A stretch of DNA of 64,000 bases from positions 46,871-110,870 of the IMG/VR virus record IMGVR_UViG_3300031419_000010, one strand, 5' to 3'. The first letter of the stretch is position 1; every line of letters starts with the position of its first letter. This document shows positions 16,773-51,964 of this stretch, in pieces. The notes beneath the pieces were generated by a model that worked only from the letters and a program-made list of their open reading frames with translations, did not search any database and was not told the DNA's origin. The stretch comes from a virus. Position numbers and translations under genes: made by a program.

Positions 16773-16804
16773 GATAATCTCCCATGCGGTATACGCATAA
16801 AAAT

Positions 16805-17017
16805 TTAGTATCGCCGGTACACCCGTGGAAACGCTGCACGGGCCATGCTGTGCAACGCTGCGCTGTACGCGATGATAACAATGTTGCGAACCAAGTCGCT
16901 GAATGCTTCTTTATAAATTCCGTAGTAACAGAATATTCCATAAAGCACGTTTAGGATTAAAAACGAGTAACGTGATCTCTTTACAGTTCCGAACATGAAA
17001 TGCTTTATCTTGTTCAT
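16805..17017 (-). CDS. small membrane protein
   Basis: Two hydrophobic segments. Confidence 0.6.
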   Translation of the reverse strand: MNKIKHFMFGTVKRSRYSFLILNVLYGIFCYYGIYKEAFSDLVRNIVIIAYSAALHSMARAAFPRVYRRY

Positions 17018-17211
17018 TGCTTTTTCCTGCGACGAATTTTTACAGCAGCCATGATCGCAAACAAAATGCTGTATGCGACCACGACACTTATTTTTCCAGT
17101 AGTGGAATAGTCAAACATGAAAGTTGAAATTCCGAACAGGACGAAACTTATTACCGATACGGTTTCAATAAAAGCAAAGAACTCCGGACATAGATAAAAC
17201 TTTTCGTCCAT
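17014..17211 (-). CDS. small membrane protein
   Basis: Two TM segments, basic C-terminus. Confidence 0.6.
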   Translation of the reverse strand: MDEKFYLCPEFFAFIETVSVISFVLFGISTFMFDYSTTGKISVVVAYSILFAIMAAVKIRRRKKQ

Positions 17212-17219
17212 GTGCTTTC

Positions 17220-34356: not shown

Positions 34357-35400
34357 TTACGACAAGTCCTGTCGGCGCATGTACGATCTCATGAAGTCTA
34401 ATTCTTCTTTTTCGAATGCTTCCCTTATATCCATCGTAAGTCGAGCAATACCGAACGGATCAACACGTTTTACCAACAGTCCTAATTTTTCTGCCTGTCT
34501 GGTTCCATTCACAGAGTCTTCAAGGTTATCCCCACCGACTCTGAAATGCAGAGAGGAATCCGCGCCTTCTGATCCTTCGTCAGAATCATTCGGGTTTGTA
34601 TCCAGACTCACAGAAAAGTTAACGGATGAAGTGTCCTCTTTTGTTGCGAGGCGTTTTTTCTGAGTCTGCGGAATAATGTAGGCAATCCCATATTCGTGAT
34701 CGCTGCTACTACAAGTCTGCGCATTCAGAATCCACCACTTCACGTACGAAACAATAGCGCCCTTCGCACTATCATATTTGTTTATTGCGATTAGAACATT
34801 GCGCAAGAAGTTTTGATTAACGTCCTTGCTGTCATACTGTTTGCCTTTGTTCGTGTCGATATAAAACTTCGCATGTTTCTGGCACAGGCGATAAAAATCA
34901 GCAACGACAGAATGAAAGTAATCCTTAAACAAAGGCAGCATGTCATTCAAACGTACCAGCGCTACAAAAAGTTTTGAACGCGAACTCGCACCAGTAGCAG
35001 TAACAATCGCATCCAAACGTTTTGCATATATCTTTCGCTTATCGCTATCCGTTGTTGAAATGAACAAACGATACAAATCAACATAGGTGCGATAATATTT
35101 GTTTAGAACGTTTTCCAAGAAGATATAGATAAAGTTCCGTTCCATCTTCACTTCGACCAGATACTGCATTCGCATGTCACGCGGCGTAGTCAAAGTTTTG
35201 ATAACCAGACTGATCGCACGTTCACGCGTTTCTGCATTATAAGGCTTACGCTTTTTATTCGAAGTGACCAGACTCAGGAGATAAATCAACTGCACATCAA
35301 ACAAGTCTGTGTTTTCCACAATCTCGCGCAATGAATCATAAAGCAGCGTATCTAAAACATCCTCAGTCTGACCGCCCGTAAGATTGGACTTGTCTGACAT
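34357..35400 (-). CDS. sigma-70 family phage sigma factor
   Basis: Region 2: DVNQNFLRNVLIAINKYDSAKGAIVSYVKWWI; region 3.2-like VSLD. Confidence 0.75.
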   Translation of the reverse strand: MSDKSNLTGGQTEDVLDTLLYDSLREIVENTDLFDVQLIYLLSLVTSNKKRKPYNAETRERAISLVIKTLTTPRDMRMQYLVEVKMERNFIYIFLENVLNKYYRTYVDLYRLFISTTDSDKRKIYAKRLDAIVTATGASSRSKLFVALVRLNDMLPLFKDYFHSVVADFYRLCQKHAKFYIDTNKGKQYDSKDVNQNFLRNVLIAINKYDSAKGAIVSYVKWWILNAQTCSSSDHEYGIAYIIPQTQKKRLATKEDTSSVNFSVSLDTNPNDSDEGSEGADSSLHFRVGGDNLEDSVNGTRQAEKLGLLVKRVDPFGIARLTMDIREAFEKEELDFMRSYMRRQDLS

Positions 35401-37473: not shown

Positions 37474-37629
37474 TTAGAAAAGAGTAACCACTTTTTGCCG
37501 TCTTGAATCGGTGCGGCGCATTTCGCGAGTGCGACCGCGTGGTTTAGATTGGAAAACTTCACGAACAACTTCTTTCAGTTGTTTTTCTTCTTCCTTGCCA
37601 AGATCAAATCCTGAATATGCGAAACGCAT
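37474..37629 (-). CDS. 51-aa basic protein (not in the track)
   Basis: MRFAYSGFDLGKEEEKQL...VVTLF* exactly fills the gap. Confidence 0.6.
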   Translation of the reverse strand: MRFAYSGFDLGKEEEKQLKEVVREVFQSKPRGRTREMRRTDSRRQKVVTLF

Positions 37630-37630
37630 T

Positions 37631-38290
37631 TTAATCACCGTTAGTTTTAATTCGTTTGGCTAGAGCCATTGCATGTTTACACAGTGCCGGAACATGCGCG
37701 GGGTTTGTGTAATCAGGCGGCTCCCCGTTGCCATAAATAATTCGACCTGCGCCGTGTTCAGCATTCGCGTACTCCCACATAAACACGTAGTTAGCACACG
37801 GACAACTTACCATGACACGTTTTTGTTTTGAGATAGGTTTGTTTGGATCGTCCAGACCAACAAACATAACTTCATATTCACGAACTTCTTTCGAAGGACG
37901 CAAAGGATCTTTATGGCGAACTTTTGCCATAACAACAGGAAGTGCTTTTCCTGTTTTGGTTTTCTTATAACCGCGCACATAACACTCATCGCCATTTTCA
38001 CGCATCAAGCGCGGAGTGTTTTTGATCAGCAATGTAAGGCTTACGCCTTTATCCATCTTTGCAGTGCGTGGCGGTTGCGGAACTTGCTTAGGTGTAAAAG
38101 GAGTGGCGGTTGCAATACGCTTTTCACCACTTGTCATACGTCGCGACTTATCGCTAGACGCACTTAAAGTTTTTACACCCTTCGCATACTTCCCGCTGGA
38201 AACTTGCTTCAAAGCCTTCTGTCGCTGCTCCGCTTGTTTGGCAGCAGGACTTTTCTTTGTGGGCTTTGCGAGTGACTTGTATTTAGCCAT
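37631..38290 (-). CDS. SWIM-type zinc finger protein
   Basis: VSCPCANY...LCKH (CxC...CxH); Lys-rich N-terminus. Confidence 0.7.
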   Translation of the reverse strand: MAKYKSLAKPTKKSPAAKQAEQRQKALKQVSSGKYAKGVKTLSASSDKSRRMTSGEKRIATATPFTPKQVPQPPRTAKMDKGVSLTLLIKNTPRLMRENGDECYVRGYKKTKTGKALPVVMAKVRHKDPLRPSKEVREYEVMFVGLDDPNKPISKQKRVMVSCPCANYVFMWEYANAEHGAGRIIYGNGEPPDYTNPAHVPALCKHAMALAKRIKTNGD

Positions 38291-40274: not shown

Positions 40275-40581
40275 TGTTCACCTCAATAGAAATGTTCTTT
40301 TCGAACAAATATACATCGTAGAAATAAGATCCATTTTTCACTACTAAATGTTCTACGGGATCGGTTTCACGACTCACAATCTGCATAAACTTGAAACGGT
40401 CTTCAAGTTCCGCACGAAATTCAGGAGTGTATTCAGAAACAGGAATAGACAAGCCTCGCATGTTGCTGTCTTTGAATACGGCGTATGTTCTTGCGTCTAA
40501 CTCTGTAGATTTACAGAATCGCATCCAATGTGCGGGATATAAACGATGAACAATGTTTGATGCGTATGATGTAGTATTCAT
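40249..40581 (-). CDS. hypothetical protein
   Basis: Downstream of CTAATTT on the minus strand. Confidence 0.6.
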   Translation of the reverse strand: MNTTSYASNIVHRLYPAHWMRFCKSTELDARTYAVFKDSNMRGLSIPVSEYTPEFRAELEDRFKFMQIVSRETDPVEHLVVKNGSYFYDVYLFEKNISIEVNSATNPKLI

Positions 40582-40649
40582 GGCATTAAAATCTGTAAAT
40601 TCGAGTTAATAGGTACAGAAAAATTAGTATTTCAAACAGGTGTTATTCT

Positions 40650-41690
40650 ATGAGTGACGTTCATCAGGTAGTTATGGAAGAGATCGGGAAACTTCCCGGC
40701 GATAAAAAGTTTGCAGCAGAATCCATTATTGTTTGCTGTCCGTTCCACGACGACAGATCACCAAGTTGCGGAATCTACACAGCAGTAGGAATGGAAATTC
40801 CATTAGGTTACTTTCACTGTTTCGGTTGCGGTGAAAAAGGAAGTTGGAATGATCTTGCGCGTAAGGCAGGATTGCAGGAAATAAAAGAATGGCGCATGAA
40901 AGACGCAGGCGAAAACTCGCTTAGCGCATTGCTCCAGACTTACGACAAGATGGATAAGAAAGTTGGCACGTATGCAACTGTTGCGCTTTTGATGAAAGCG
41001 TTAAAGCGCGATAGTTATATGGAATGGCCGGAAGATGTGGAGTGGCGAACTTATCCGGGATCGTTAGTTCGTGCGGCAGGTGGATTGTTGAATGCGCAGC
41101 GTACCGGAACAAACATTTGTTTCTTTCCGTGCAAGGTAGGATCAAAATACATTGGCGGCGTTGCGGCGTATCTTACCAAACAATTAACCGGAACAAGTTA
41201 CGTTAACTCTAATGGTGATTGGGCCAAAACAAAAGGTCTGTTTCCGACTCAACTTGTGCGCGACTGTTTGAAAAAATACAAACTGAAATATGTTGTGTTG
41301 GTTGAAGGGCCACGCGATGCGCTTGCGCTTCTCAGTTATGGAATCCCGGCGCTGGCGGTATTAGGTGCGCAGCAGTTTGGATCTGAGAAAAGAAGGCTGG
41401 TTGAAATGTTAGGTGTGACTACGGTCTACACAATGACAGATAACGATGACGGCGGGAAACTTTTGAGGGATAAGATTTTCAAGGAGTTCTCAACCAATTC
41501 GCTTATGCGTGTTAAGCATTTCAAATTGCCGCGTGAGAAGGACGAGAAAGGAAAGCTGATTAAACTTGATCCGGACAATGCGCCAATCAAGATCATCAAA
41601 GAAGTGAAGGCACTGTTGAAAGACGTGCAAGGCGAGAAGTGTTTTATCCCAGCAAAGAAGTTAGGCTGGAAACGCGAGAAGAAAAAATAA
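40650..41690 (+). CDS. DNA primase (CHC2 zinc finger + TOPRIM)
   Basis: CPFHDD...HCFGCG; LVEGPRD; TDND. Confidence 0.88.
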   Translation: MSDVHQVVMEEIGKLPGDKKFAAESIIVCCPFHDDRSPSCGIYTAVGMEIPLGYFHCFGCGEKGSWNDLARKAGLQEIKEWRMKDAGENSLSALLQTYDKMDKKVGTYATVALLMKALKRDSYMEWPEDVEWRTYPGSLVRAAGGLLNAQRTGTNICFFPCKVGSKYIGGVAAYLTKQLTGTSYVNSNGDWAKTKGLFPTQLVRDCLKKYKLKYVVLVEGPRDALALLSYGIPALAVLGAQQFGSEKRRLVEMLGVTTVYTMTDNDDGGKLLRDKIFKEFSTNSLMRVKHFKLPREKDEKGKLIKLDPDNAPIKIIKEVKALLKDVQGEKCFIPAKKLGWKREKKK

Positions 41691-41752: not shown

Positions 41753-42409
41753 TTATTCGTCGTCTTCCTCTTCTTCTTCATCGTTCATGCGATCTTGAAT
41801 CGCTTCCAGAATCAGCTCAGTCAGAGGGCCGCTCTTGATTGATTTGCGCAGACGTTCCAGATCGTCAAACGTCAGGCTGTGGGCGCGAGTCATGAATTCA
41901 CGTTGCAGAGACTCATCATCTTCGTCTTCTTCTGCGCGGTCGATCATGGCTTCGATGAAATCGTTGTTCGGAGAATTTTTCTGCTTCTTAGCGATCTTAC
42001 GTGCCTTAGCAGAAGTTTCGCCAGAATCCAGATCGATCTCTTCGTGGTCTTCGCTATCGTCGGTAATGGTATCAACGATTTTGTTGATGCGCTGATATTC
42101 AGATTTTGCGCGAGGTGTAGAAAGATATTTTTCTGCATCTTCGGCGCGAACGATAACGAGTTGCTTTTTGGTAAGAATCTGACGCAGCGTTGAACTGCGC
42201 AGCAGATTTTCCAGCGGTGCCATCGTGGTAAGATCAATCGGGATAAAGGTCGCCGGGATCAGTACCGGAATAGTGACGTTAAGTTCGTTGATACAGTTGA
42301 AAGCGATGTTCCCGTTTGGGTTCGAACGGTTCAACACGTACAAGGACGCGACAGGATCGTTGCCGAATTCTTTGTTAAACTGCGTCAGAGAGATGGGGGT
42401 GATTTTCAT
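41753..42409 (-). CDS. hypothetical protein; N-domain paralogous to 42522-44513
   Basis: IDLTTMAPLENLLRSSTLRQ. Confidence 0.75.
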   Translation of the reverse strand: MKITPISLTQFNKEFGNDPVASLYVLNRSNPNGNIAFNCINELNVTIPVLIPATFIPIDLTTMAPLENLLRSSTLRQILTKKQLVIVRAEDAEKYLSTPRAKSEYQRINKIVDTITDDSEDHEEIDLDSGETSAKARKIAKKQKNSPNNDFIEAMIDRAEEDEDDESLQREFMTRAHSLTFDDLERLRKSIKSGPLTELILEAIQDRMNDEEEEEDDE

Positions 42410-42521
42410 TTAAATGTTACTCCAAGATTTAGCGAATTTGTTTTCAGTACCCGCACGTCCATGTGCAGAAAGATTTGAGCTAGTTAAACATTACCAAGTT
42501 CAGATCTATTACATGAAAAAG

Positions 42522-44513
42522 TTACTCAGCAGCTTTGGCGGCAACGGTATAAGTGAAACTGGAGTTTGCGAAACCACGTTTTGCGAAACCAATTTCAATT
42601 TCCTGTGCGGCAGCGGCGGCGGATTTGAGATTCAGAGTAAAGCTACCTGCGTCGTCAGCTTCAACAGAAGCAGAAGCATCAGCACAAGTTACCAGAGCGT
42701 GAGGCTCCGTGGTTGCCGTTACGGTGGTGTCACCTTCTGTAATGGTCAACGCTGGTTCAACGAAATTACTAAGCGCGGTAGGAGTTACCGTTAAAGTTTT
42801 ATCTGCGTAATGCAGTTTCTTAAACGTTAAAGTTTCTGCGCTGTTCATCGCCGGGCCAGACAGTTCGAAATTACCATCGGACTCAACAGTGCCAACTTTA
42901 TTACCTTCGATGAAAATTTCTGCATCAGGTTCTGCGGTGCCGTTGATTTCAGTTTCACCAACATAAATAGTTTGATAAGTTGGTGCAGCCTGAACACTCA
43001 GCGCTTTGACTGCAAGCACTAAAGTTTTATCAGCGTAGTTTGTTTTCTGGAACAGAACGTTGGTGTTGCCTGCGCTCAGTGCATCAACGGTCAGACTAAA
43101 TGATCCATCAGCAGAAGCGACAACAGATTTATCCGCAACAGAAACTTTCGTTCCTTCCAGAGTTGTACCAGTGATAACAGTGTCACCTGCGTACGCATCG
43201 TTAAGCGTTGGTGCTGGCAGATCTTTTCCGAGAATATCTACTTCGGCTGCTTTCGAGTTGTAGTATTCGCTGGTGAAAGTAATGATCGCTTCGCCTGCAT
43301 CCAATGCGTCAGTTGCAAAACTAAATGCGCCGTCGTTACCAACAGCAACGTCGTAAGTTTTCGCGTCCGTTACCAGTTCAGCTTTAACATCGGTTGAACC
43401 AGCTTTCAGAACAACTTTACCTTTCACAACTTTTTCTTCCGCGTGAACGGCGTCAACAGTTACTGCGCCAAACTCGTTTTTCTCAGGAGTGCGAGAGAAC
43501 GTAGTTTCTTTGTAGCCAGTAGATTTGACAGTTGCTTTAACGTCGCCCTGAATAGGATTGCAGTTAGCGTTGTATTCAGTTTCGTTTGCCGGAACAGTGA
43601 CGTTAATCAGTGCCTGGCCAGCGATCTCAATTTCAACGCCAAACGGCAACGGCTGTGCCGGATTGATGTTTAACAGAACAGCGTCATCCAGATATTTCGG
43701 AGTGATCATTGTTACGTTAACTTCGCGCTGTTGTGCAGCAGGCGTCACAGTCAGATCGGTGTAGCCTTCATGCGAGAAAAGAATTTCCAGAGTGCCGTGA
43801 GGATACGGAACGTCCAGAGCAAATTTTCCATCGCTACCAGCAGTCGCAACGTCAGCGCTATTGCCGTCATTCAGAAGAATAACAGTTGCGCCTTCGAGTG
43901 TGGTGCCGGTGATCTGCGAGTCAAAGTTGGTGAAGGTGTTCACAGTTGGCTGCGGATAAACCTGCTTCGGTTTTTCCTGAACAGTCACAGCGACGTTTTT
44001 AGTTTCAAATTTTTCTTTCATGAAACTAACGTTAAACTGTTGACCAGCAACAAGCAAATCAATCACAGGCAGAGAAAAGTTTTTACCTTCTCCGACGATT
44101 GTTGCAGAAACTTTACCGCCAATCACAGATTGAACTTGAGTTCCTTCCGGTGCGCTTCCGGAAATCGCGGTGTCGCCTTCGGTAACAGGAACATCAACCA
44201 GCGTGTAAGCCGGGAACTTTTGATCATTTGGCTCAGGCATATCCTGCGGGTTAACCAAGCGCAGTTGCTTTGAAGCAAACACTTGACGCAGTTCGGCACT
44301 TGCCAAAAGGTTTTGTAGCGGCGCATATTCGGTAAGGTCAACGGCGCTTCCCGTGATCGGAATGATAATGTCGCGCATACGAAAATCGCTACCAAGCACA
44401 CTGAAAGAAATCTGACCGCGAGGGAAACTTGCGTTGCGAACCCACATCTTTGGATCAGTAAGAACATTCGTTTTCAGAATTTGTTCAAACTGTTCAAGAG
44501 TAATCGTACTCAT
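42522..44513 (-). CDS. Ig-like repeat virion protein (decoration/fibre candidate)
   Basis: About seven ~80-aa Thr/Val-rich repeats (ITGTT..G..V...DG.F.L). Confidence 0.75.
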   Translation of the reverse strand: MSTITLEQFEQILKTNVLTDPKMWVRNASFPRGQISFSVLGSDFRMRDIIIPITGSAVDLTEYAPLQNLLASAELRQVFASKQLRLVNPQDMPEPNDQKFPAYTLVDVPVTEGDTAISGSAPEGTQVQSVIGGKVSATIVGEGKNFSLPVIDLLVAGQQFNVSFMKEKFETKNVAVTVQEKPKQVYPQPTVNTFTNFDSQITGTTLEGATVILLNDGNSADVATAGSDGKFALDVPYPHGTLEILFSHEGYTDLTVTPAAQQREVNVTMITPKYLDDAVLLNINPAQPLPFGVEIEIAGQALINVTVPANETEYNANCNPIQGDVKATVKSTGYKETTFSRTPEKNEFGAVTVDAVHAEEKVVKGKVVLKAGSTDVKAELVTDAKTYDVAVGNDGAFSFATDALDAGEAIITFTSEYYNSKAAEVDILGKDLPAPTLNDAYAGDTVITGTTLEGTKVSVADKSVVASADGSFSLTVDALSAGNTNVLFQKTNYADKTLVLAVKALSVQAAPTYQTIYVGETEINGTAEPDAEIFIEGNKVGTVESDGNFELSGPAMNSAETLTFKKLHYADKTLTVTPTALSNFVEPALTITEGDTTVTATTEPHALVTCADASASVEADDAGSFTLNLKSAAAAAQEIEIGFAKRGFANSSFTYTVAAKAAE

Positions 44514-45130
44514 TTAATTTTCTCCAGAAGAGAGTTTAAGGCGAAACAGAAGATCTGATACTTTTTCGGAGTCAGGCCAAGCGCGGTGCCTAGCGCAAAC
44601 TCCGTGTTAGTAAGAGTTGAAGTTACTTCTGCAAAACGCGCTTCGTCGCCCATGTACTGCAACATCCAGATTTGATATTCCGGAAAAGTTTCTTGCAGGA
44701 ATCCATGAACGCCGTCAACAGATGGAACGGTTCCAACGTTGTATGAGAAATTTCTTTCCGTTGCAGTGAGATCAAGTTTGTGAATAAAAGTGCTCAGACA
44801 AATTGCAAGACGCGCACGGTTCTGTGAGCGACGAACAGTTGCCTCAAGTTGCTTTTGATCAAACTCACCAAGTTCGGGGAACAATCCCTTTTTGTAGTAA
44901 GCGATTTCTTTACTGCTAATCGGACGGTCAGAACTTTCTTTTCTGTCCAGCGCAAGACAGCCAGTTTCAGTTGCGGTTGTGCAATACTGGCAGCGCGACA
45001 TTGGACACATGCCACGAAAGCGAAAAGGATGGTTCGACTCTTCCAATTCAGGACAAAGATTGATCGGACGCGTATCAACTTTAATCGGAATGTTTTTCTG
45101 TTTGCGTTTTGCTCTTACTGCGGTTGCCAT
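44510..45130 (-). CDS. hypothetical Cys-containing protein
   Basis: CP...CPMSRCQYC...GC. Confidence 0.7.
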   Translation of the reverse strand: MATAVRAKRKQKNIPIKVDTRPINLCPELEESNHPFRFRGMCPMSRCQYCTTATETGCLALDRKESSDRPISSKEIAYYKKGLFPELGEFDQKQLEATVRRSQNRARLAICLSTFIHKLDLTATERNFSYNVGTVPSVDGVHGFLQETFPEYQIWMLQYMGDEARFAEVTSTLTNTEFALGTALGLTPKKYQIFCFALNSLLEKIK

Positions 45131-45189
45131 CTTTTGAATTCCTGTATACAGATTTTATTTTCTATTACAGTACATTTACAGCTTTTGTT

Positions 45190-45876
45190 TCAAAAGTTTG
45201 GAAATTCCACACAATATTCCAAAACAGTCAAGCTGGAATTTGGTGCTGTATCCAGATGATCTGCGCATGACAAAATTAAAATTCGTGGACGCTGCTTAAA
45301 CGGCAACGTGTGTTTCGAAACCATTTTGGTAACGTTGTCTACAAGCTCGTTTAAGTTTTTCCAGTTGAATGATGCACGGGCAAGATCTTCAACTTGATGC
45401 TTGTTGAAAAGCTCAAGGTATTTTTCGTGCGTGATCATTTCAGTGCCAACGCCTACAGTTTCAAACATGCTGCGAATCACATCACACGTTCGGAACATAG
45501 GAAGCGAAACAGGCGCAAGCGGATCGATAGGTTGGTCAACATTGAATCCACGAGGACAAACAGAGAAAACAAACGTGGTAAAGTTTTTGCCTTCGGTCTG
45601 GATCGTTTCAATTTCGCGATAATAAATATCGCAGCCGAGATCCGGATCAACCGTTGGGAAAACTTTACTGCCAACAAAATGCTGAATATCTTTTATCAGC
45701 TTGTTGTAAGTGATCCAAGTAGATTTAAATTCAAACTGCTCAAGCAGATTGCCTTTGGTATCCCGCGCCGCCTGCCCCGGAAGAAGAATGTGAAGGTCTG
45801 CTTCGAACAGCGCTTCCATTAAAGACTGAATCAGCACGTCAGTTTGAAAATTGTTGGTTTGCATATTAACGGTCAT
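45190..45876 (-). CDS. hypothetical protein
   Basis: ATGA coupling with ruvC. Confidence 0.7.
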   Translation of the reverse strand: MTVNMQTNNFQTDVLIQSLMEALFEADLHILLPGQAARDTKGNLLEQFEFKSTWITYNKLIKDIQHFVGSKVFPTVDPDLGCDIYYREIETIQTEGKNFTTFVFSVCPRGFNVDQPIDPLAPVSLPMFRTCDVIRSMFETVGVGTEMITHEKYLELFNKHQVEDLARASFNWKNLNELVDNVTKMVSKHTLPFKQRPRILILSCADHLDTAPNSSLTVLEYCVEFPNF

Positions 45877-46442
45877 GTTTTAAATTCCAAAAGTTTGGGC
45901 GAATTGAGGAAGCGATCAATTAGTTTGTAGATCGTCTTCTGAATTCCCGCAAAGGGTTTGAGATTGTTCATTTTATAGAACGTATAAACTCCAATCAACA
46001 TGGAGTCGAATTCGTGAATTGCTTTCTTACTCTTTTTCGAAGTAAGTTTAAACTCATCGTAAAGATCTTTGAGTTTTGGTTCGCACTCACGGTTGAAAGC
46101 ATTCTTCCATTGCGAAGCAGTGATCGCAAAGAAGGGAATTTTTTTCTTATGGCAGTAAAAAGCCATAACGCCAATCATGATACTGATTGCTTCGATGGTG
46201 TTTCCACCTAACCCGCGTGACTGAAAGCGTTCAAAACACATTGCGTCAAACGGGCCATACTTTTTGTCGATTGCAGTGATCTCGTCAAGAAACTTTTTCG
46301 TTACTGCGCCAAGATCACCAGTAAGATCTTGAATCGGACTGCCAAACATTCGCGTTCCGATAATGTCCAACTTCTTTTTCTCAAAGTTGATAACGGTAAG
46401 CGCAAAGTTCACTTTTCCGGGATCACCAGATAAAATGCGCAT
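45873..46442 (-). CDS. RuvC-like Holliday junction resolvase
   Basis: ILSGDPG.VNFA, CFERF, ASQWK, HEFDS. Confidence 0.75.
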   Translation of the reverse strand: MRILSGDPGKVNFALTVINFEKKKLDIIGTRMFGSPIQDLTGDLGAVTKKFLDEITAIDKKYGPFDAMCFERFQSRGLGGNTIEAISIMIGVMAFYCHKKKIPFFAITASQWKNAFNRECEPKLKDLYDEFKLTSKKSKKAIHEFDSMLIGVYTFYKMNNLKPFAGIQKTIYKLIDRFLNSPKLLEFKT

Positions 46443-46577
46443 AGAAAGCTCCTTTTATTTGTCTATATAAATAATCATTCGTGCGCCTCAAGGTAGAATA
46501 AAATTTTATCAGTAATTTTTCTAAGTAAAGGATTGCTGTGAGAAGGTGTACCATAACGGGCTATTAGAGGCGACACT

Positions 46578-47693
46578 ATGAGTTGGATCAATTCTGGAAA
46601 AAGCCGCACCACTTACAAACGACACAAAACTTATGAAGGTGAAAGAGTCCAAAAAAGATTGGACAGCATCATCGAAGTTGTGCAGTCGAAAGTTGAGCAA
46701 GCTCTTGCTGTTGATAGCACAAAAGTTATCATCTTTAAAAAAGCAAAGTTTGGTTTGGTGTGCAGTTGTAACCGCGTCGAAAATGATTTCGAAGATCTTT
46801 TAGAAGGCGGGATGAAAAGCGTTGTGCGCGAAAATGATGGCGAGTCGCGAGGCGCAGGAGTTTCAATTAAAAGTTCCGGCTCCACGATGTTTGGTGGAAA
46901 AGGAAAAGGCGCAATTGCGTTAGATGATATGATCAGTTCCAGTGCGCAGGCCACGCTTGACGCTGCGGATATGATGAGTGACGGCGGCGAAGAAGATATT
47001 CGCTATGACGGAGGCAACAACGTTAACTGCGGTATCTGTTATCGTCAGGGTGTGCAGCCGGGCTATCAGTCAACAGGTTATATCTATAACGTAATGACGC
47101 ATCACCACACGCAAAAACTTTCCGGATACAATGAGGATCAGTCAACAGCGCCAACAACTTTCAAAGCAGTTAAGAAAGGGGCGTACGTTGATTTTGAAAC
47201 CTTAGTACCGAAATATTTTAAGTCGGCAAAATACAGCATTCGCATAAACGAGATTGTGTTGCCGCCTAGCGTGAAAATGTTTGCTGTGATCAACGGCAAA
47301 GAAACCGCGCTCACTCTTGATCTTCTGAACAAAAAGAAAGGTCAGAATATTATTGTGCGCGTCAAAGATGTTGAGGTGTTCACTCACGCCATTTTGATTT
47401 TTGATTTGGGTGTGGCTGACGTTAACTGCAATATCAGCGAAGAACAAAACACGTTGAACTACGATCAAGAACTCACAGTTGGTAATATCACTGTAGTGCT
47501 TCCTGCTCGTGTTGGAATGATTGAGCCGGAAGATATTCTTGTTCTGCCGTTCAAACGTTATGTTCTGAAAGTTACTGAGGCACCAAAGAAACGCACTGCA
47601 AAAAATCAGTCGTGGGAATGGGTTGTCACAACACGTCCAGTACAGCGAAAGGAATTGCAGTACAACATCAACAAAGGTTTTGACTTGAGGTAA
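46578..47693 (+). CDS. probable virion structural (head completion/neck-like) protein
   Basis: CSC...CGIC; beta-rich C-terminus; first gene after the strand switch. Confidence 0.45.
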   Translation: MSWINSGKSRTTYKRHKTYEGERVQKRLDSIIEVVQSKVEQALAVDSTKVIIFKKAKFGLVCSCNRVENDFEDLLEGGMKSVVRENDGESRGAGVSIKSSGSTMFGGKGKGAIALDDMISSSAQATLDAADMMSDGGEEDIRYDGGNNVNCGICYRQGVQPGYQSTGYIYNVMTHHHTQKLSGYNEDQSTAPTTFKAVKKGAYVDFETLVPKYFKSAKYSIRINEIVLPPSVKMFAVINGKETALTLDLLNKKKGQNIIVRVKDVEVFTHAILIFDLGVADVNCNISEEQNTLNYDQELTVGNITVVLPARVGMIEPEDILVLPFKRYVLKVTEAPKKRTAKNQSWEWVVTTRPVQRKELQYNINKGFDLR

Positions 47694-47695
47694 TC

Positions 47696-48256
47696 ATGCA
47701 GACAGAAATTATTCTAGGTCGCAATCCCGATCAGGTTGCAGATATTCCACAAAGCGGAGACGCGCAAAACACGATCACTGGCGAGAAGCTAACAGAGGAT
47801 GCGCCGCGCACTGATTCAACGATCACGATGCGCGACAACGCACCAGTTGTTAAGCAGGCCGAAGCTGTTGACGTTCGTCCGACGAGCATCAAAGCGGTGG
47901 CGTGTGACGATCCCGGCTACGAAGATTATCTTAAACGTTTGTACAACGTTCCGGAAGGCGGCGAAGTGTCAGGCATTCAAAGAATCTTTGCAGGTCTGGC
48001 GCAAGAACTTCACGACATTACTCAGGGATCAATTGATCGCAAATACAATGTTGTTGGCGGTGTGAGTGAGTCGCGATCTAAATCGGCAAATGCGCGAAGC
48101 AAAATGCTGAAAATGATCATGCCGGAATTGAGTCGTGACATGGGCGATAAACTGTCGAAAGCCGTTGGAGACAACGATGGAGACGCTGTTGCTATGCTTA
48201 TGGCGCAGATCGGCAGGAAGTTGCAGAAAAAGCTCAACATGAAAAATCGAAAGTGA
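47696..48256 (+). CDS. hypothetical (possibly virion) protein
   Basis: GAGG SD; internal VSES motif. Confidence 0.65.
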   Translation: MQTEIILGRNPDQVADIPQSGDAQNTITGEKLTEDAPRTDSTITMRDNAPVVKQAEAVDVRPTSIKAVACDDPGYEDYLKRLYNVPEGGEVSGIQRIFAGLAQELHDITQGSIDRKYNVVGGVSESRSKSANARSKMLKMIMPELSRDMGDKLSKAVGDNDGDAVAMLMAQIGRKLQKKLNMKNRK

Positions 48257-48686
48257 GTAGAATCGCATTCTAAGGGCTTAAAACGCAAATCTACGCGATA
48301 TTGAAATTTGCGTTTTTTATTAAATCCCTTTTTACTCTTACATATCAATGACTTACAGAATGAGCCAAATATTTTACACGTATTTCGGAAATGAAACTTT
48401 CGCTATCCTTTGAGTATTTGCCTATATCCATTGAGTATAGGTAGGGCTAGGTAGGGTATAGCTAGATCGTATGGTGATACCTATAGCGGAGCGCAATGCC
48501 GAACGGACGCAGCCCAGGCCCAGGCCGCCCCAGGCGTAAACCAGCGTAGCGTATGCGTGTATAGCTTTTTAAAATAGATAAGGTCACAAAGAATTTTATC
48601 TTGAAGACAAGAGCTAAAAATAAAAGGGATCTTTGGGCAGGTGGATCGGAAAAATTCTGTAAAGATCAAATGTGTTTCGATAAATC
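48257..48686. other. origin-like non-coding region
   Basis: Inverted repeat 48280-48316, IHF box, AT-rich tracts and several short direct repeats. Confidence 0.55.
48343..48355 (+). promoter_or_regulatory. IHF binding site
   Basis: TATCAATGACTTA matches WATCAANNNNTTR, with an upstream A/T tract. Confidence 0.65.
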
Positions 48687-50348
48687 ATGTTTAGGTATGT
48701 TATGGATACTTTTATCATTAAGAATCCTGCGTATCAAGAGCATTTCACAGTCGAATGGGTTCGAAAGAATGTTATCTTTGCGTGTCCGTACGATGGCCCG
48801 GAAGATCGCGAGTGGGAATTTAGAGAACAAGTTTCCACCTTCTTCTGGCACATTGTGCATTGCACACTTTATAACAGCAAGTTTAAAAACGTTAAGCGTC
48901 TTCCGTCTATTCCTTTCGCTTGGGTCTTTGGTATTCAAAAACTGCCTATGGTTTTTGGATCGGCAGGTAGCCACGGATCAAGTTCAAGATACTCGGAAAA
49001 ATCGAGAACGAAGTTTTCACGCGCACTAGAATGGCTAAAAGAAAATGTTCTGGATGTGTCAGGCTATAAATATGGCGCAGCGGGATCGGCGTGTCGTGAG
49101 TTCAGGATCAAACGTGCGGTATTTGATGGCATGTATCCGTACTCTCCGAAAACGCCGGAAGAAATCTTTGGGAAAGTAAGATATTGCAGTCCAAACTTTT
49201 TGCGAAATACTCCAGTGGGAAAAACCTTAGCTGATATTCTTGAAAGGAAATCGGTTGAGGCGTTGGGTAAACCTTCGCATGATTTTGATTCTCTTGATCG
49301 CAATCGTGATCGCGAAGTCAGAAAACTTTACAAGGAAGTTTTAGATAAACAAGATCCTCTTTCGATTACACTGCTTCCTGTTGTGGAAGAGTTGAGTCGA
49401 TTGAGTAAGTTCACCAGCGCTCAAGCAAAGGCCCGTCATCGTTTGGTGTTTTCAAACACAATGGGAATCTTAGCAGGCAACTTTTCTTGCCATAGCGTTG
49501 AGGAAATGAAAATTTCTTATCTGCCAACTTATCGTGTTAGTCCGGTAGGCGGTCGTCTTTATGAATGTGGCGGCGGTTTTCAAAACTTCCCTCGCAGTCT
49601 AAAAGAGCGTTGCCATATTCGCGGGTACAACCACGACATGCGAAGCAGTCAGCTAAACATTTTGAAGATGGAATTTGATCGCAACAATATTCGTTGCAGT
49701 TCAATCCAAAACTACAAAAGCGTTGCAGACTTTGGTGAACCTTATGGCTTGTCGAAAGACGATACAAAGGTTTGCTTTTATGCGACGGTGTTTAGTATAG
49801 GTCAGGCACTGAATGCAAAATCTTGTTGGCACTCTGAACCTCTGCGCGTTATTGCGAAATCAAAACGCACTGAGTGTATTCACCGCGCCGCAAAACAGTT
49901 GGGTAAAAAGTATCGTGACTCTTCAATGATTCCGCCTGTGATAAAGCTGGCGAGAAAGTTGATGGTGAAGGAAACCAATCGCATTCGCGACATTTGGAAC
50001 AAAGAGAACGAAACTTTAACACTGGCGCTTGAAGAACTTTGCGAAATTTATATTTCCAAAGCTCGTAAGGCGAAGGAAAAAAGTGTGCTCACAAATGCAG
50101 TAGGCGTACGATTTGCCTGGCCGACAGAAGAGATAGATTACAAAATCCGAAAACAGATTTTGAGTCACATGATCACGGGAATCGAAACGAAACTTTTGTT
50201 CGATATGATTTTGTCGAATGATGTTCGTGTTTATTCTTTTGAGCACGACGGCGCACTGATTAGCAGAGCGAAGGTATCGTCAGAGGAAATCGAATTTGTT
50301 CGAAAACCTTTCGATGAAACTTCCTATCAGTATTTCAAAAATCTGTAA
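48687..50348 (+). CDS. minimal family-A polymerase-like protein (TV-Pol-like), no exonuclease domain
   Basis: GGRLY..GGFQNFP, NHDMRSSQL (motif A), TKVCFYAT (motif B), FEHDG (motif C). Confidence 0.7.
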   Translation: MFRYVMDTFIIKNPAYQEHFTVEWVRKNVIFACPYDGPEDREWEFREQVSTFFWHIVHCTLYNSKFKNVKRLPSIPFAWVFGIQKLPMVFGSAGSHGSSSRYSEKSRTKFSRALEWLKENVLDVSGYKYGAAGSACREFRIKRAVFDGMYPYSPKTPEEIFGKVRYCSPNFLRNTPVGKTLADILERKSVEALGKPSHDFDSLDRNRDREVRKLYKEVLDKQDPLSITLLPVVEELSRLSKFTSAQAKARHRLVFSNTMGILAGNFSCHSVEEMKISYLPTYRVSPVGGRLYECGGGFQNFPRSLKERCHIRGYNHDMRSSQLNILKMEFDRNNIRCSSIQNYKSVADFGEPYGLSKDDTKVCFYATVFSIGQALNAKSCWHSEPLRVIAKSKRTECIHRAAKQLGKKYRDSSMIPPVIKLARKLMVKETNRIRDIWNKENETLTLALEELCEIYISKARKAKEKSVLTNAVGVRFAWPTEEIDYKIRKQILSHMITGIETKLLFDMILSNDVRVYSFEHDGALISRAKVSSEEIEFVRKPFDETSYQYFKNL

Positions 50349-50385
50349 ATAGTTATCAGTAAACCGAAGTGTTGGAGATTCTATC

Positions 50386-51456
50386 GTGCCGAAGAAAAAC
50401 GCACGGACGGAAAAGTTGCCAGCGGGGTTGGGTGAGTTGTTTGAAGCGGATCGTCCGGAAGAATCCAAAGTGAAACTTCCGAAAAAGATCAACGGCATTC
50501 GACTCAAACCCAAACCGAAGCCTAAAGCAAAAAAGAAGTCCGGGAATGAAGTGCCAATTGAGATCTACGAACTTGCTGCGTTGTACGAATGCTATCACCA
50601 CAACACAGTAACCGATAGTTATCGCACTTGGCCCGATATGACAATTGCAGAAGCATACAAAATCGTTTCTCAGATGAATCCGTCTGAACTCGAAAGCGTA
50701 AAACAATATGCAGCGTTATATCGAAATGACAGCGGCCTTAAATTTGAAGAGTTGCGTGAATTCCGAAACGCACTCATCGAGAAAGAAATTTCGATTGGGA
50801 TTAGCATTCCCCTGTTTATCGAACATTTCAAGATTGAACCGAACGATCCTATCATTGCCTCGTTGCTTTATACGTGGGCGTCTTATGTTAGGACGATGGT
50901 TGAACGACGCAAAAAATTAATCCCCACAAAAACTCGTCATGCTGCTACTGTGCAGGAAGGCGATTTTTGCGTTGAGATAGAGTGTAACGCGGAACAGGCC
51001 AAAGTGCTTGATCGCTATTGCTCAGTGTGGCACGGAACTTTGCTGGCGTGTCGCGACTATCTCAAATCTCTTGGCAATCGTGCGCCAAAGCGTATTGACA
51101 AAATCAGTAGCAAGCTGGCTACTCAGATTCGCAAGGAACATAACTTTGAAGATGTTCCGCGCAGTCTTGTTGTTTGTGCGTTGAATGGGTACACGCAAAA
51201 ACTAAAGTTCGATAACAACAAAGATTTTAAACGCGATCTGGATCGTTTCTACGTGAAGGACAACTTTAAACTTTTTGAAAATTCATTGACTGTCGGTAAA
51301 GCCAAAGAGATTGCTATCACAAAAATTGTTGGTGGTGAGCGTCTTGATCTAACTGTTCGTGGAATTTCTTTTGCCCGTACTTCTCCGTTGGTTTACACCG
51401 TGACGATTCAGTACGATAAAATGGAATTGCTTGAGCAACAGTACGGTACGGATTAA
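50386..51456 (+). CDS. protein with C-terminal TnpB-like REC/WED region lacking RuvC
   Basis: IECNAEQAKVL..., TQIRKEH..EDVPRSLV..AL, FKL..NSLTVGK..I, VRGISFAR...YTVTI. Confidence 0.55.
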   Translation: MPKKNARTEKLPAGLGELFEADRPEESKVKLPKKINGIRLKPKPKPKAKKKSGNEVPIEIYELAALYECYHHNTVTDSYRTWPDMTIAEAYKIVSQMNPSELESVKQYAALYRNDSGLKFEELREFRNALIEKEISIGISIPLFIEHFKIEPNDPIIASLLYTWASYVRTMVERRKKLIPTKTRHAATVQEGDFCVEIECNAEQAKVLDRYCSVWHGTLLACRDYLKSLGNRAPKRIDKISSKLATQIRKEHNFEDVPRSLVVCALNGYTQKLKFDNNKDFKRDLDRFYVKDNFKLFENSLTVGKAKEIAITKIVGGERLDLTVRGISFARTSPLVYTVTIQYDKMELLEQQYGTD

Positions 51457-51476
51457 GCCTCTTCGGAGGCTTTTTC
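51456..51476 (+). terminator. intrinsic terminator
   Basis: AGCCTC-TTCG-GAGGCT followed by a T tract. Confidence 0.85.
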
Positions 51477-51502
51477 TTCAATCACTTTCGGGAACAATAA
51501 TT

Positions 51503-51964
51503 ATGTTGAGTAATGAGCGTCTTGCTGTAGAAATTCAAAACAGACTCGACATTGTTAATCAATCAATGTGGAACATTTTCGATGCGTTCGAAAAAAGTAT
51601 CTCCGTTCCTAACACTCCTTTCTTCGTTAGCGCTGAGTGGCTGTATGATCACCGCACTCTGTCTTTACGCATGGGAAAAGGAACGGGTCACAGTACGTTT
51701 GCAAAGCAACTGGCAGAGAAACACAACGCCTTTCTTTTAACTATGGATCATGAAGCGCAAGAAGGAGAATTTAATTTCTCACACAATCGCCTTCGTGAAT
51801 TGTACCACAAATTCGGAACTCCAAACATTCCTACTCTGTTTGTTATCGACGACGCTTATCAGTTTGGCGGTCGTTTTGAATCTCTCCGCTTACGTCTGGA
51901 AAGGTTCCGCGATACACTCGGTGAGGATTATCTTCGCAGCGTTCGTTTTGTGCTTTTGAATTAA
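51503..51964 (+). CDS. degenerate P-loop-like protein
   Basis: MGKGTGHST and FVIDD. Confidence 0.6.
   Translation: MLSNERLAVEIQNRLDIVNQSMWNIFDAFEKSISVPNTPFFVSAEWLYDHRTLSLRMGKGTGHSTFAKQLAEKHNAFLLTMDHEAQEGEFNFSHNRLRELYHKFGTPNIPTLFVIDDAYQFGGRFESLRLRLERFRDTLGEDYLRSVRFVLLN

Follow-up and report, generated by a model that had tools for sequence, protein, structure and literature searches.

The DNA analyzed here is a viral stretch of 64,000 nt (hereafter the window), corresponding to positions 46,871 to 110,870 of the IMG/VR record IMGVR_UViG_3300031419_000010, itself a 110.9-kb fragment. At 48257-51476 it carries a locus that is, by comparison with related phages, a self-contained, co-inherited three-part cassette, made up of a cis non-coding region, an enzyme with a polymerase fold (P0001) and a partner protein ending in a TnpB-type lobe (P0002). 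The combination of the gap with a stripped-down PolA-like enzyme and a RuvC-less TnpB-derived protein has not been described before, and its job is unproven; full-text literature searches, none aimed directly at a RuvC-less TnpB paired with a family-A polymerase, retrieved no paper on the P0001 and P0002 genes. The cassette is found in a group of phages of plant pathogens, 250-270 kb in size, and is swappable among them. The region is ~77% identical at the DNA level to the Dickeya solani jumbo phages JA11, JA13, JA29 and JA33 (Salmondvirus, ~255 kb), and the window comes from a Dickeya Salmondvirus-like jumbo phage. The locus is composed as follows:

48257-48686 (430 nt; 445 nt, to 48701, if P0001 starts at 48702), non-coding gap from g186 to P0001
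48280-48316, plus strand, perfect 11-bp hairpin followed by a T-run, terminator of g186, with an A-run and a T-run on either side
48343-48355, plus strand, integration host factor (IHF) consensus WATCAANNNNTTR (= TATCAATGACTTA), ~0.014 expected in the gap
48363-48386, plus strand, A-rich/TTTACAC motif (in Erwinia types GAAAAATTTACA[CT]GG), conserved in Dickeya and most Erwinia types
48485-48500, plus strand, allele-A-specific conserved island AGCGGAGCGCAATGCC; allele-B gaps have a different conserved block in the same place
48513-48535, plus strand, CCCAGGC three times, inside a zone of simple sequence that evolves fast, 60-150 nt upstream of the promoter; individually not above chance
48655-48663, plus strand, promoter-like element TTCTGTAAA of P0001, with CTGTAAA at 48657
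48687-50348, plus strand, P0001, 553 aa; 548 aa from the likelier start 48702, where homologues begin (MDTF...)
50343-50349, plus strand, CTGTAAA promoter-like element of P0002, overlapping the Leu and stop codons of P0001
50386-51456, plus strand, P0002, 356 aa
51455-51472, plus strand, intrinsic-terminator-like hairpin AAGCCTC-TTCG-GAGGCTT, then a T-run
48257-50745, plus strand, exchanged cassette: the whole gap, P0001 and P0002 residues 1 to ~120, with the same boundaries in two lineage pairs

Related loci were taken from one metagenome scan, from IMG/VR and from phage records in GenBank. In 19/19 of the loci compared, g371 and g186 are followed by a gap of 320-490 nt, the PolA-like gene, a variable stretch and g325, always in this order. 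Homologues of P0002 reside directly downstream (13-75 nt) of the PolA-like gene in all 22 GenBank phage records having one (Yoloswag, pEa_SNUABM_5, 7, 14, 16, 18, 21, 28, 35 and 36, pEp_SNUABM_52, and the Dickeya JA phages), so that the synteny proposed as a check in the initial annotation holds for the gap and the PolA-like gene throughout, and for P0002 wherever it is present. The PolA-like gene stands alone in Y3, Alexandra and pEa_SNUABM_1, 2, 39 and 40, which form one sub-clade in a quick maximum-likelihood tree (midpoint root, support by Shimodaira-Hasegawa-like approximate likelihood ratio test only); a single loss of P0002 in the Y3/Alexandra sub-clade is the simplest reading. Open reading frames (ORFs) following the PolA-like gene in Y3 were considered as cryptic P0002 remnants, and rejected (hhalign probability <=1%).

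The cassette is exchanged as a block. JA33 and JA13, two phages of one species, are 96-98% identical in the flanks; divergence begins exactly at the stop codon of g186 and ends at residue ~121 of P0002. Identity of the PolA-like protein to P0001 is 83% in JA33 and 45% in JA13. Up to the end of g186, the metagenome contig L066 and the window are 98.6% identical, and beyond residue ~120 of P0002 they are 89% identical. In the stretch between, L066 has the other allele, with a PolA-like protein 45% identical to P0001 and 75% to that of JA29. Two backbone lineages are accordingly found, each with both allele types and the same boundaries, and isolates of both alleles exist (JA11/JA33 vs. JA13/JA29). 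Within one allele type P0001 is conserved to 83%, several neighbours reaching 62-78%, and each type has a conserved island of its own within the gap. Since phages that are near-identical elsewhere can do with polymerases of no more than 45% identity, a sequence-specific target of P0001 must lie inside the cassette, if there is one at all. We infer that the gap would contain a cis-acting site, and that the N-terminus of P0002 is probably the part fitting P0001; allele exchange is the strongest argument for both. The 16-mer AGCGGAGCGCAATGCC matched 28 IMG/VR contigs, only two of them relatives and the remainder chance matches.

P0001 is predicted to be an accessory polymerase of the family-A fold, devoid of exonuclease, in which both Asp of the active site are intact and a further domain is added at the N-terminus. 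In the AlphaFold model (predicted local distance difference test, pLDDT, 80; predicted template-modelling score, pTM, 0.75) a separate conserved domain (residues 1-190) precedes the polymerase thumb, palm and fingers (residues ~193-545). Residues 201-545 align to residues 377-832 of KlenTaq with a Z-score (Z) of 15.3 and a root-mean-square deviation (rmsd) of 3.7 over 284 residues; T7 DNA polymerase and Pol theta (Z 15.1) score about equally. In a Foldseek-independent search of 48,161 chains the top ten matches are family-A DNA polymerases (human Pol nu first, Z 13.7; Klenow, Z 13.5; Pol theta, Z 12.8), and single-subunit RNA polymerases (T7, mitochondrial) score below them, at Z 10.1-10.6. 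An exonuclease domain, either 3'-5' or 5'-3', is missing. Motifs were assigned by inspecting alignments, and read N-x-D317-M-x-S-S-Q(-L-N) for motif A, K357-x3-K361-x3-Y365-x3-F369 for the O-helix and E-H-D521-G for motif C. D317, K361 and D521 are invariant, and Y365 nearly so, in 13 sequences from all clades. These include a deeply divergent clade beyond the reach of tblastn, yet homologous by hhalign (probability 98.4%, E 6e-15), in which motif B is R-x3-K-x2-N-Y-G-x2-Y-x-G, near the textbook PolA motif, and motif C is F-D-G. The Asp of motif C in P0001 is not followed by Glu, and a steric-gate Glu is not evident in motif A on motif inspection; the sugar specificity of the putative enzyme cannot therefore be assumed.

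By sequence P0001 stands apart. It matched no Pfam family at E<=1 and no PDB sequence at E<=10, PF00476 matched nothing in the 110-kb record at E<=10, and PHROGs returned an unnamed family only. Residues 1-190 gave weak winged-helix-like structural matches (Z 4.5-5.2), to be taken as a lead only, and Protein Atlas provided no usable lead on the N-terminal domains of P0001 and P0002. Homologues of P0001, 18 found first and 10 later, all come from 200-270 kb phage contigs of one group, which includes the Dickeya JA phages and the Erwinia phages Y3, Alexandra, Yoloswag and pEa_SNUABM. A canonical PolA (PF00476, 182-184 bits, ORF of 1054-1055 aa) resides in JA33, Y3 and pEa_SNUABM_7, ~37-41 kb from the PolA-like gene; because these phages have a separate replicative PolA, P0001 is probably a second, accessory and specialised enzyme.

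The most variable part of the P0001 family (13-27% identity) is a helical hairpin in the fingers region (residues 376-440, ~49812-50006), where Dickeya types feature an insertion of ~35 residues. The PolA-like gene is annotated in GenBank as 405 aa long in JA33 (JA33_200) and 284 aa long in JA13 (JA13_200). By tblastn, 546-553 residues of the 553-aa P0001 query are covered by one match each in JA33 (locus L001, 6187-7845) and JA13 (locus L002, 6111-7736); the annotated starts thus look too far downstream, and inflate the apparent gap in both phages. The homologue of pEa_SNUABM_5 (MW366843.1, 180521-182173) is labelled 'putative helicase', and no support for a helicase was found.

P0002 begins with a disordered tail rich in Lys and Pro (residues 1-54), followed by a helical domain (55-185) and an alpha/beta domain (190-345; 50953-51420) corresponding to the WED and REC lobe of TnpB (model pLDDT 78). 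Residues 190-343 align to residues 3-173 (WED + REC) of ISDra2 TnpB with Z 14.3 and rmsd 3.0 over 150 residues. The best 50 rows of the first structure search, and the top 28 of an independent wide search of the same 48,161 chains, are all TnpB, Cas12 or Fanzor proteins, Z then falling to ~6 in the latter. In the wide fold search, dominated by the C-terminal lobe, the helical domain had no match. In 18/18 homologues the C-terminus coincides with the WED/RuvC boundary. P0002 has neither RuvC (D-E-D) nor the zinc-finger/TNB insert, the OrfB_IS605 (PF01385) and HTH_OrfB profiles match nowhere in the record, and the ORFs downstream of P0002 are unrelated, with no RuvC-related Pfam match. Since homologues share the same end and no RuvC follows, the RuvC-less form is old and conserved, and not a pseudogene. 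No transposase is annotated among the neighbours in JA33 and JA13, and the gene occupies one syntenic slot across the 22 phage records. P0002 matched no Pfam or PHROGs family and no PDB sequence; a profile search of 1.84 billion representatives retrieved six clusters only. In BFVD the whole architecture was found in JA11, Yoloswag and one further entry only, the other matches being full-length TnpB or Fanzor proteins. Both proteins thus correspond to what had been read from the letters alone, an exonuclease-less family-A polymerase-like protein and a protein ending in a TnpB-like REC/WED region.

The gap between g186 and P0001 (48257-48686) contains no ORF of at least 75 aa. It had been regarded as the largest in the window; it is among the three largest, the others being 37488-37912 (425 nt) and 16773-17219 (447 nt, with ORFs of 65-70 aa). 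AT-rich flanks (25-33% GC at 48300-48420 and 48540-48630) surround a GC-rich core (48480-48539, up to 70%). From g186 to P0001 there follow the hairpin terminator, the IHF consensus, the A-rich/TTTACAC motif, the allele-specific island, the simple-sequence zone, an AT-rich stretch and the promoter; most of the sequence is fast-evolving and poorly conserved. The IHF box of the initial annotation is confirmed. No island of the gap is better conserved in Dickeya-type phages, the other allele type included, and in 4/4 Dickeya-type relatives the IHF consensus has the same position. Two origin-like features, the AT-rich stretch and the IHF site, are present, the latter conserved in Dickeya types only. 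The A-rich/TTTACAC motif is found at +102 to +134 of the gap in 13/19 loci. The 110-kb record has a single copy, and the motif is nearly the CTGTAAA promoter core in inverted form. Direct repeats are TATCC(T/A)TTGAGTAT (two copies), TAGGTAGGG (two copies) and CCCAGGC (three copies); other lineages have different short repeats in the same simple-sequence zone. In the allele-B gaps of JA13 and JA29 a GAGTAGA(A)TCGC... stretch, found once in allele A directly after the g186 stop, occurs twice, at columns 28-46 and 187-205 of the gap alignment, the two copies flanking the segment with terminator, IHF site and TTTACAC motif; the pair may be a recombination scar.

The CTGTAAA motif (consensus AAATCTGTAAATA) follows the coding strand and is mostly intergenic. 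It lies at most 120 nt upstream of a co-oriented ORF start for 20 of the 30 copies in the 110-kb record and 34 of the 78 in JA33 (7.5-8% expected), and precedes the genes for the primase, single-stranded DNA-binding protein (SSB), clamp loader, SbcC-like protein and sigma factor as well. Upstream of the PolA-like gene it is kept in 18/19 loci. The copies at 48657 and 50343, one per gene, are as initially annotated, but CTGTAAA as a module-specific signal was rejected, the motif being a general phage promoter element; that P0001 and P0002 each have a copy means only that each has its own promoter. Being common to replication genes, the motif places P0001 and P0002 in the replication-gene promoter class. 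The terminator said to close the unit is present at 51455-51472.

Around the locus, the following features were located in the window:

34357-35400, sigma factor gene
40650-41690, DnaG/TOPRIM-type primase gene
46443-46577, switch of coding strand, 1.7 kb from the locus
46578-47693, g371
47696-48256, g186, the gene upstream of the gap

The separate TOPRIM primase and the strand switch at ~2 kb, both part of the earlier description, are among them. The neighbourhood also includes an SbcC-like protein and a Holliday-junction resolvase, the latter by JA33 annotation. An ORF directly after the terminator (51485-51964), conserved in Dickeya-type relatives, shows weak similarity to AAA ATPases in Pfam, at E 0.009 and short of the cut-off. 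In JA33 (locus L001, 3969-5214) the g371 homologue is found in two ORFs, JA33_203 and JA33_202, with overlapping query matches, which suggests a frameshift or a sequencing error. Two divergent CTGTAAA copies, 48 nt apart, reside at 40509-40600, with the primase gene on one side and a minus-strand ORF on the other. From 41753 to 46442, 4.7 kb of minus-strand genes have the positive GC skew of the plus-strand block, as does 176.5-185 kb of JA33; the odd skew of the 41753-46442 block may reflect a recent inversion or be driven by replication. PaBG, a member of a phage group related to these Erwinia and Dickeya phages, encodes a PolA with uracil-DNA glycosylase (UDG) and exonuclease domains, homologues of the Pol III beta and gamma subunits, and its own sigma factors (PMC7412058).

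Of the roles considered, we tentatively favour one in which the cassette would cause DNA synthesis on the phage genome to start at a specific site, by priming of the origin type or by primer extension. P0001 would recognise allele-specific sequence in the gap and begin, or elongate, a primer. The exchangeable first ~120 residues of P0002 would serve for docking on P0001, and its conserved WED/REC lobe, with the Lys/Pro tail, would hold an RNA-DNA hybrid or duplex DNA independently of any RNA guide. Promoters of the CTGTAAA class would drive expression of the cassette together with the replication genes. A bolder version, according to which the nuclease-stripped, guide-free TnpB lobe would be the DNA- or R-loop-holding subunit of a family-A polymerase firing a private, allele-specific origin just upstream, is rather unlikely. 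A prediction of the complex of P0001 with P0002 residues 55-356, run without controls, scored 0.40, 0.00 and 0.00, and counts neither way.

The dedicated origin or priming module of the initial annotation stands in part: the three elements are linked, are exchanged as a block and have a promoter motif common to replication genes, but an origin at the gap, though plausible, has no direct support. Several results weigh against initiation at the gap. The cumulative GC-skew minimum of the window falls at ~40 kb, next to the gene of the primase, and its distance from the gap is ~8 kb. In the complete JA33 genome the minimum is at ~185 kb and the maximum at ~40 kb, whereas the locus occupies 170-176 kb and the coding strand switches at 176.5 kb, so that the turn is again ~8 kb away, and the skew check once proposed for an origin at the gap came out negative. 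Skew follows mostly gene orientation, and is thus a weak test of origins; yet it lends no support to the gap. As the skew of the window turns exactly at the divergent CTGTAAA pair, 40509-40600 is an alternative origin candidate. The repeats listed above do exist, but are not above the expectation from shuffled sequences (p ~0.1), have low tandem-repeat scores, and are not kept as repeats in relatives, even inside one allele type; at least three conserved direct repeats, as in iterons, were not found in the gap. The IHF consensus is missing from Erwinia-type gaps, and is thus found in one lineage only. P0002 is absent from the Y3/Alexandra sub-clade, and is therefore dispensable there. The fixed boundaries of the cassette could also have arisen if recombination took place within whatever conserved sequence lies nearest. 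Polymerase activity and DNA binding are, moreover, putative, as is any contact of P0001 with P0002.

Other roles can be assigned to the same genes. P0001 may be an accessory polymerase for repair or damage tolerance, similar to Pol theta or Pol nu and engaged in gap filling, end joining or lesion bypass, with P0002 as a DNA-binding cofactor and the gap reduced to terminator, promoter and regulatory spacer. The ranking of Pol nu and Pol theta in the structure searches, the lack of a proofreading domain, the SbcC-like protein and the annotated resolvase nearby and the fast evolution of most of the gap are all in keeping with such a role. It leaves unexplained, however, both the allele-specific conserved islands of the gap and the deep allele types, swapped in two lineages together with the upstream non-coding region and the N-terminus of the partner, and we regard it as somewhat unlikely. 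A role in competition between phage and host or among phages (counter-defence, or exclusion of related co-infecting phages), the alleles being under frequency-dependent selection, is distinctly unlikely. Alleles A and B are present in both the window and the JA lineages, a parallel divergence typical of conflict and specificity loci; members of the family come from a single phage group, and TnpB derivatives are often recruited into regulatory or toxin roles (PMC10691335). But the conservation of P0001 within an allele type, exceeding that of its neighbours, is not the change expected of an arms race, the promoter class is common to replication genes, and no link to a known defence or anti-defence family emerged, the PADLOC library not having been scanned.

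Two further roles are far less probable. The initial annotation had envisaged a nucleic-acid-guided component, and an RNA derived from the gap could be bound by P0002 in the manner of omega-RNA and guide the polymerase to a target. The WED/REC lobe does derive from an RNA-guided family, the conserved TTTACAC motif could be a start site, and RNAalifold on six Erwinia-type gaps gave a weak consensus in which one hairpin has compensatory changes. Against this, P0002 lacks RuvC, the domain that accommodates a large part of the guide-RNA scaffold in TldR and TnpB structures (PMC13622181). The gap matched no tRNA or Rfam family and, poorly conserved as it is, folds no better than shuffled sequences on either strand (z -0.39 and +0.85); a structured RNA in the gap was rejected for now. 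The next gene begins less than 30 nt after P0002, which leaves no room for an omega-RNA downstream. RNA guidance is thus very improbable, and the claim of a guided component is not upheld. The same low probability is assigned to a transcriptional role, with P0001 as a minimal single-subunit RNA polymerase and P0002 as its promoter-targeting factor. T7 and mitochondrial RNA polymerases do have the same fold, and the HDG/FDG form of motif C, without the Glu of DNA polymerases, and motif A, without an evident steric gate on inspection, would suit it, but DNA polymerases score higher. Promoters scattered over the genome, moreover, cannot be allele-specific in phages that have 45%-identical polymerases and are 96-98% identical elsewhere. 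The sigma factors of the PaBG group serve the host RNA polymerase (PMC7412058), and the window encodes one sigma factor as well. Taken together, the module is real as a co-inherited unit, site-specific initiation fits more of the facts than any other role, repair and conflict are the main rivals, and RNA guidance and transcription are unlikely.

A conserved family featuring the WED/REC lobe alone implies that this half of TnpB can work by itself, and P0002 homologues bear on how RNA-guided proteins are dismantled and reused. As a strict gene pair swapped together with its upstream DNA, and with both alleles available in isolates, the cassette is a tractable candidate for the start of DNA synthesis in jumbo phages; alternatively, the swapped pair would be a new kind of specificity or conflict module. 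If the bolder version above held true, P0001 would be the first replication initiator of the PolA fold, P0002 the first RuvC-less TnpB exaptation, and exchangeable 'replicon types' would be maintained among co-circulating jumbo phages.

Compared with known family-A enzymes (Pol I Klenow and KlenTaq, Pol nu, Pol theta, T7), P0001 is alike in thumb, palm and fingers (Z 13-15), and in the Asp of motif A, the Lys and Tyr of the O-helix and the His-Asp of motif C. It differs by the absence of exonucleases, of the motif C Glu and of an evident steric-gate Glu, by an unrelated N-terminal domain of 190 residues, by the lack of PF00476 or PDB sequence matches, and by being a second copy beside the canonical phage PolA. 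In the ori-rep units of plasmids the origin lies just upstream of the initiator gene, and origin-specific primer makers such as ColE2 Rep and P4 alpha are known. The cassette is similar to such units and primer makers (pSC101 ori/repA, ColE2 Rep, P4 alpha) in that an AT-rich non-coding region with an IHF site precedes the gene, and in that discrete, exchangeable specificity types exist. Unlike them, it has no significant or conserved iterons, and has a PolA-fold enzyme in the place of a winged-helix Rep or a primase.

To our knowledge, all described TnpB derivatives (Cas12 types, TldR, Cas12k, Cas12m and sigma-linked dCas12f) have retained both a guide RNA and a RuvC domain, whether or not the latter is degenerate. 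P0002 resembles TnpB and its nuclease-dead derivatives (TldR, Cas12k, Cas12m, sigma-associated dCas12f) in the WED and REC domains, over 150 of ~170 residues, but is devoid of both RuvC and zinc finger, adds an N-terminal domain and a basic tail, and has no evident guide RNA. In TldR the RuvC domain is kept in an inactivated form and a short guide RNA is aimed at a promoter (PMC13622181); in P0002 the domain is gone entirely. As in exapted TnpBs, the gene is non-mobile, has a fixed locus and is accompanied by a conserved partner. The nearest published arrangement found is the PrimPol-TnpB operon of Deinococcus (PMC10691335), where a TnpB-family protein likewise forms a conserved pair with a DNA-synthesising enzyme. 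There, a full-length, catalytically active TnpB is joined to a primase-polymerase of the archaeo-eukaryotic type, with a different polymerase fold, on a bacterial chromosome; here, a RuvC-less TnpB derivative is paired with a predicted family-A-fold enzyme in a phage.

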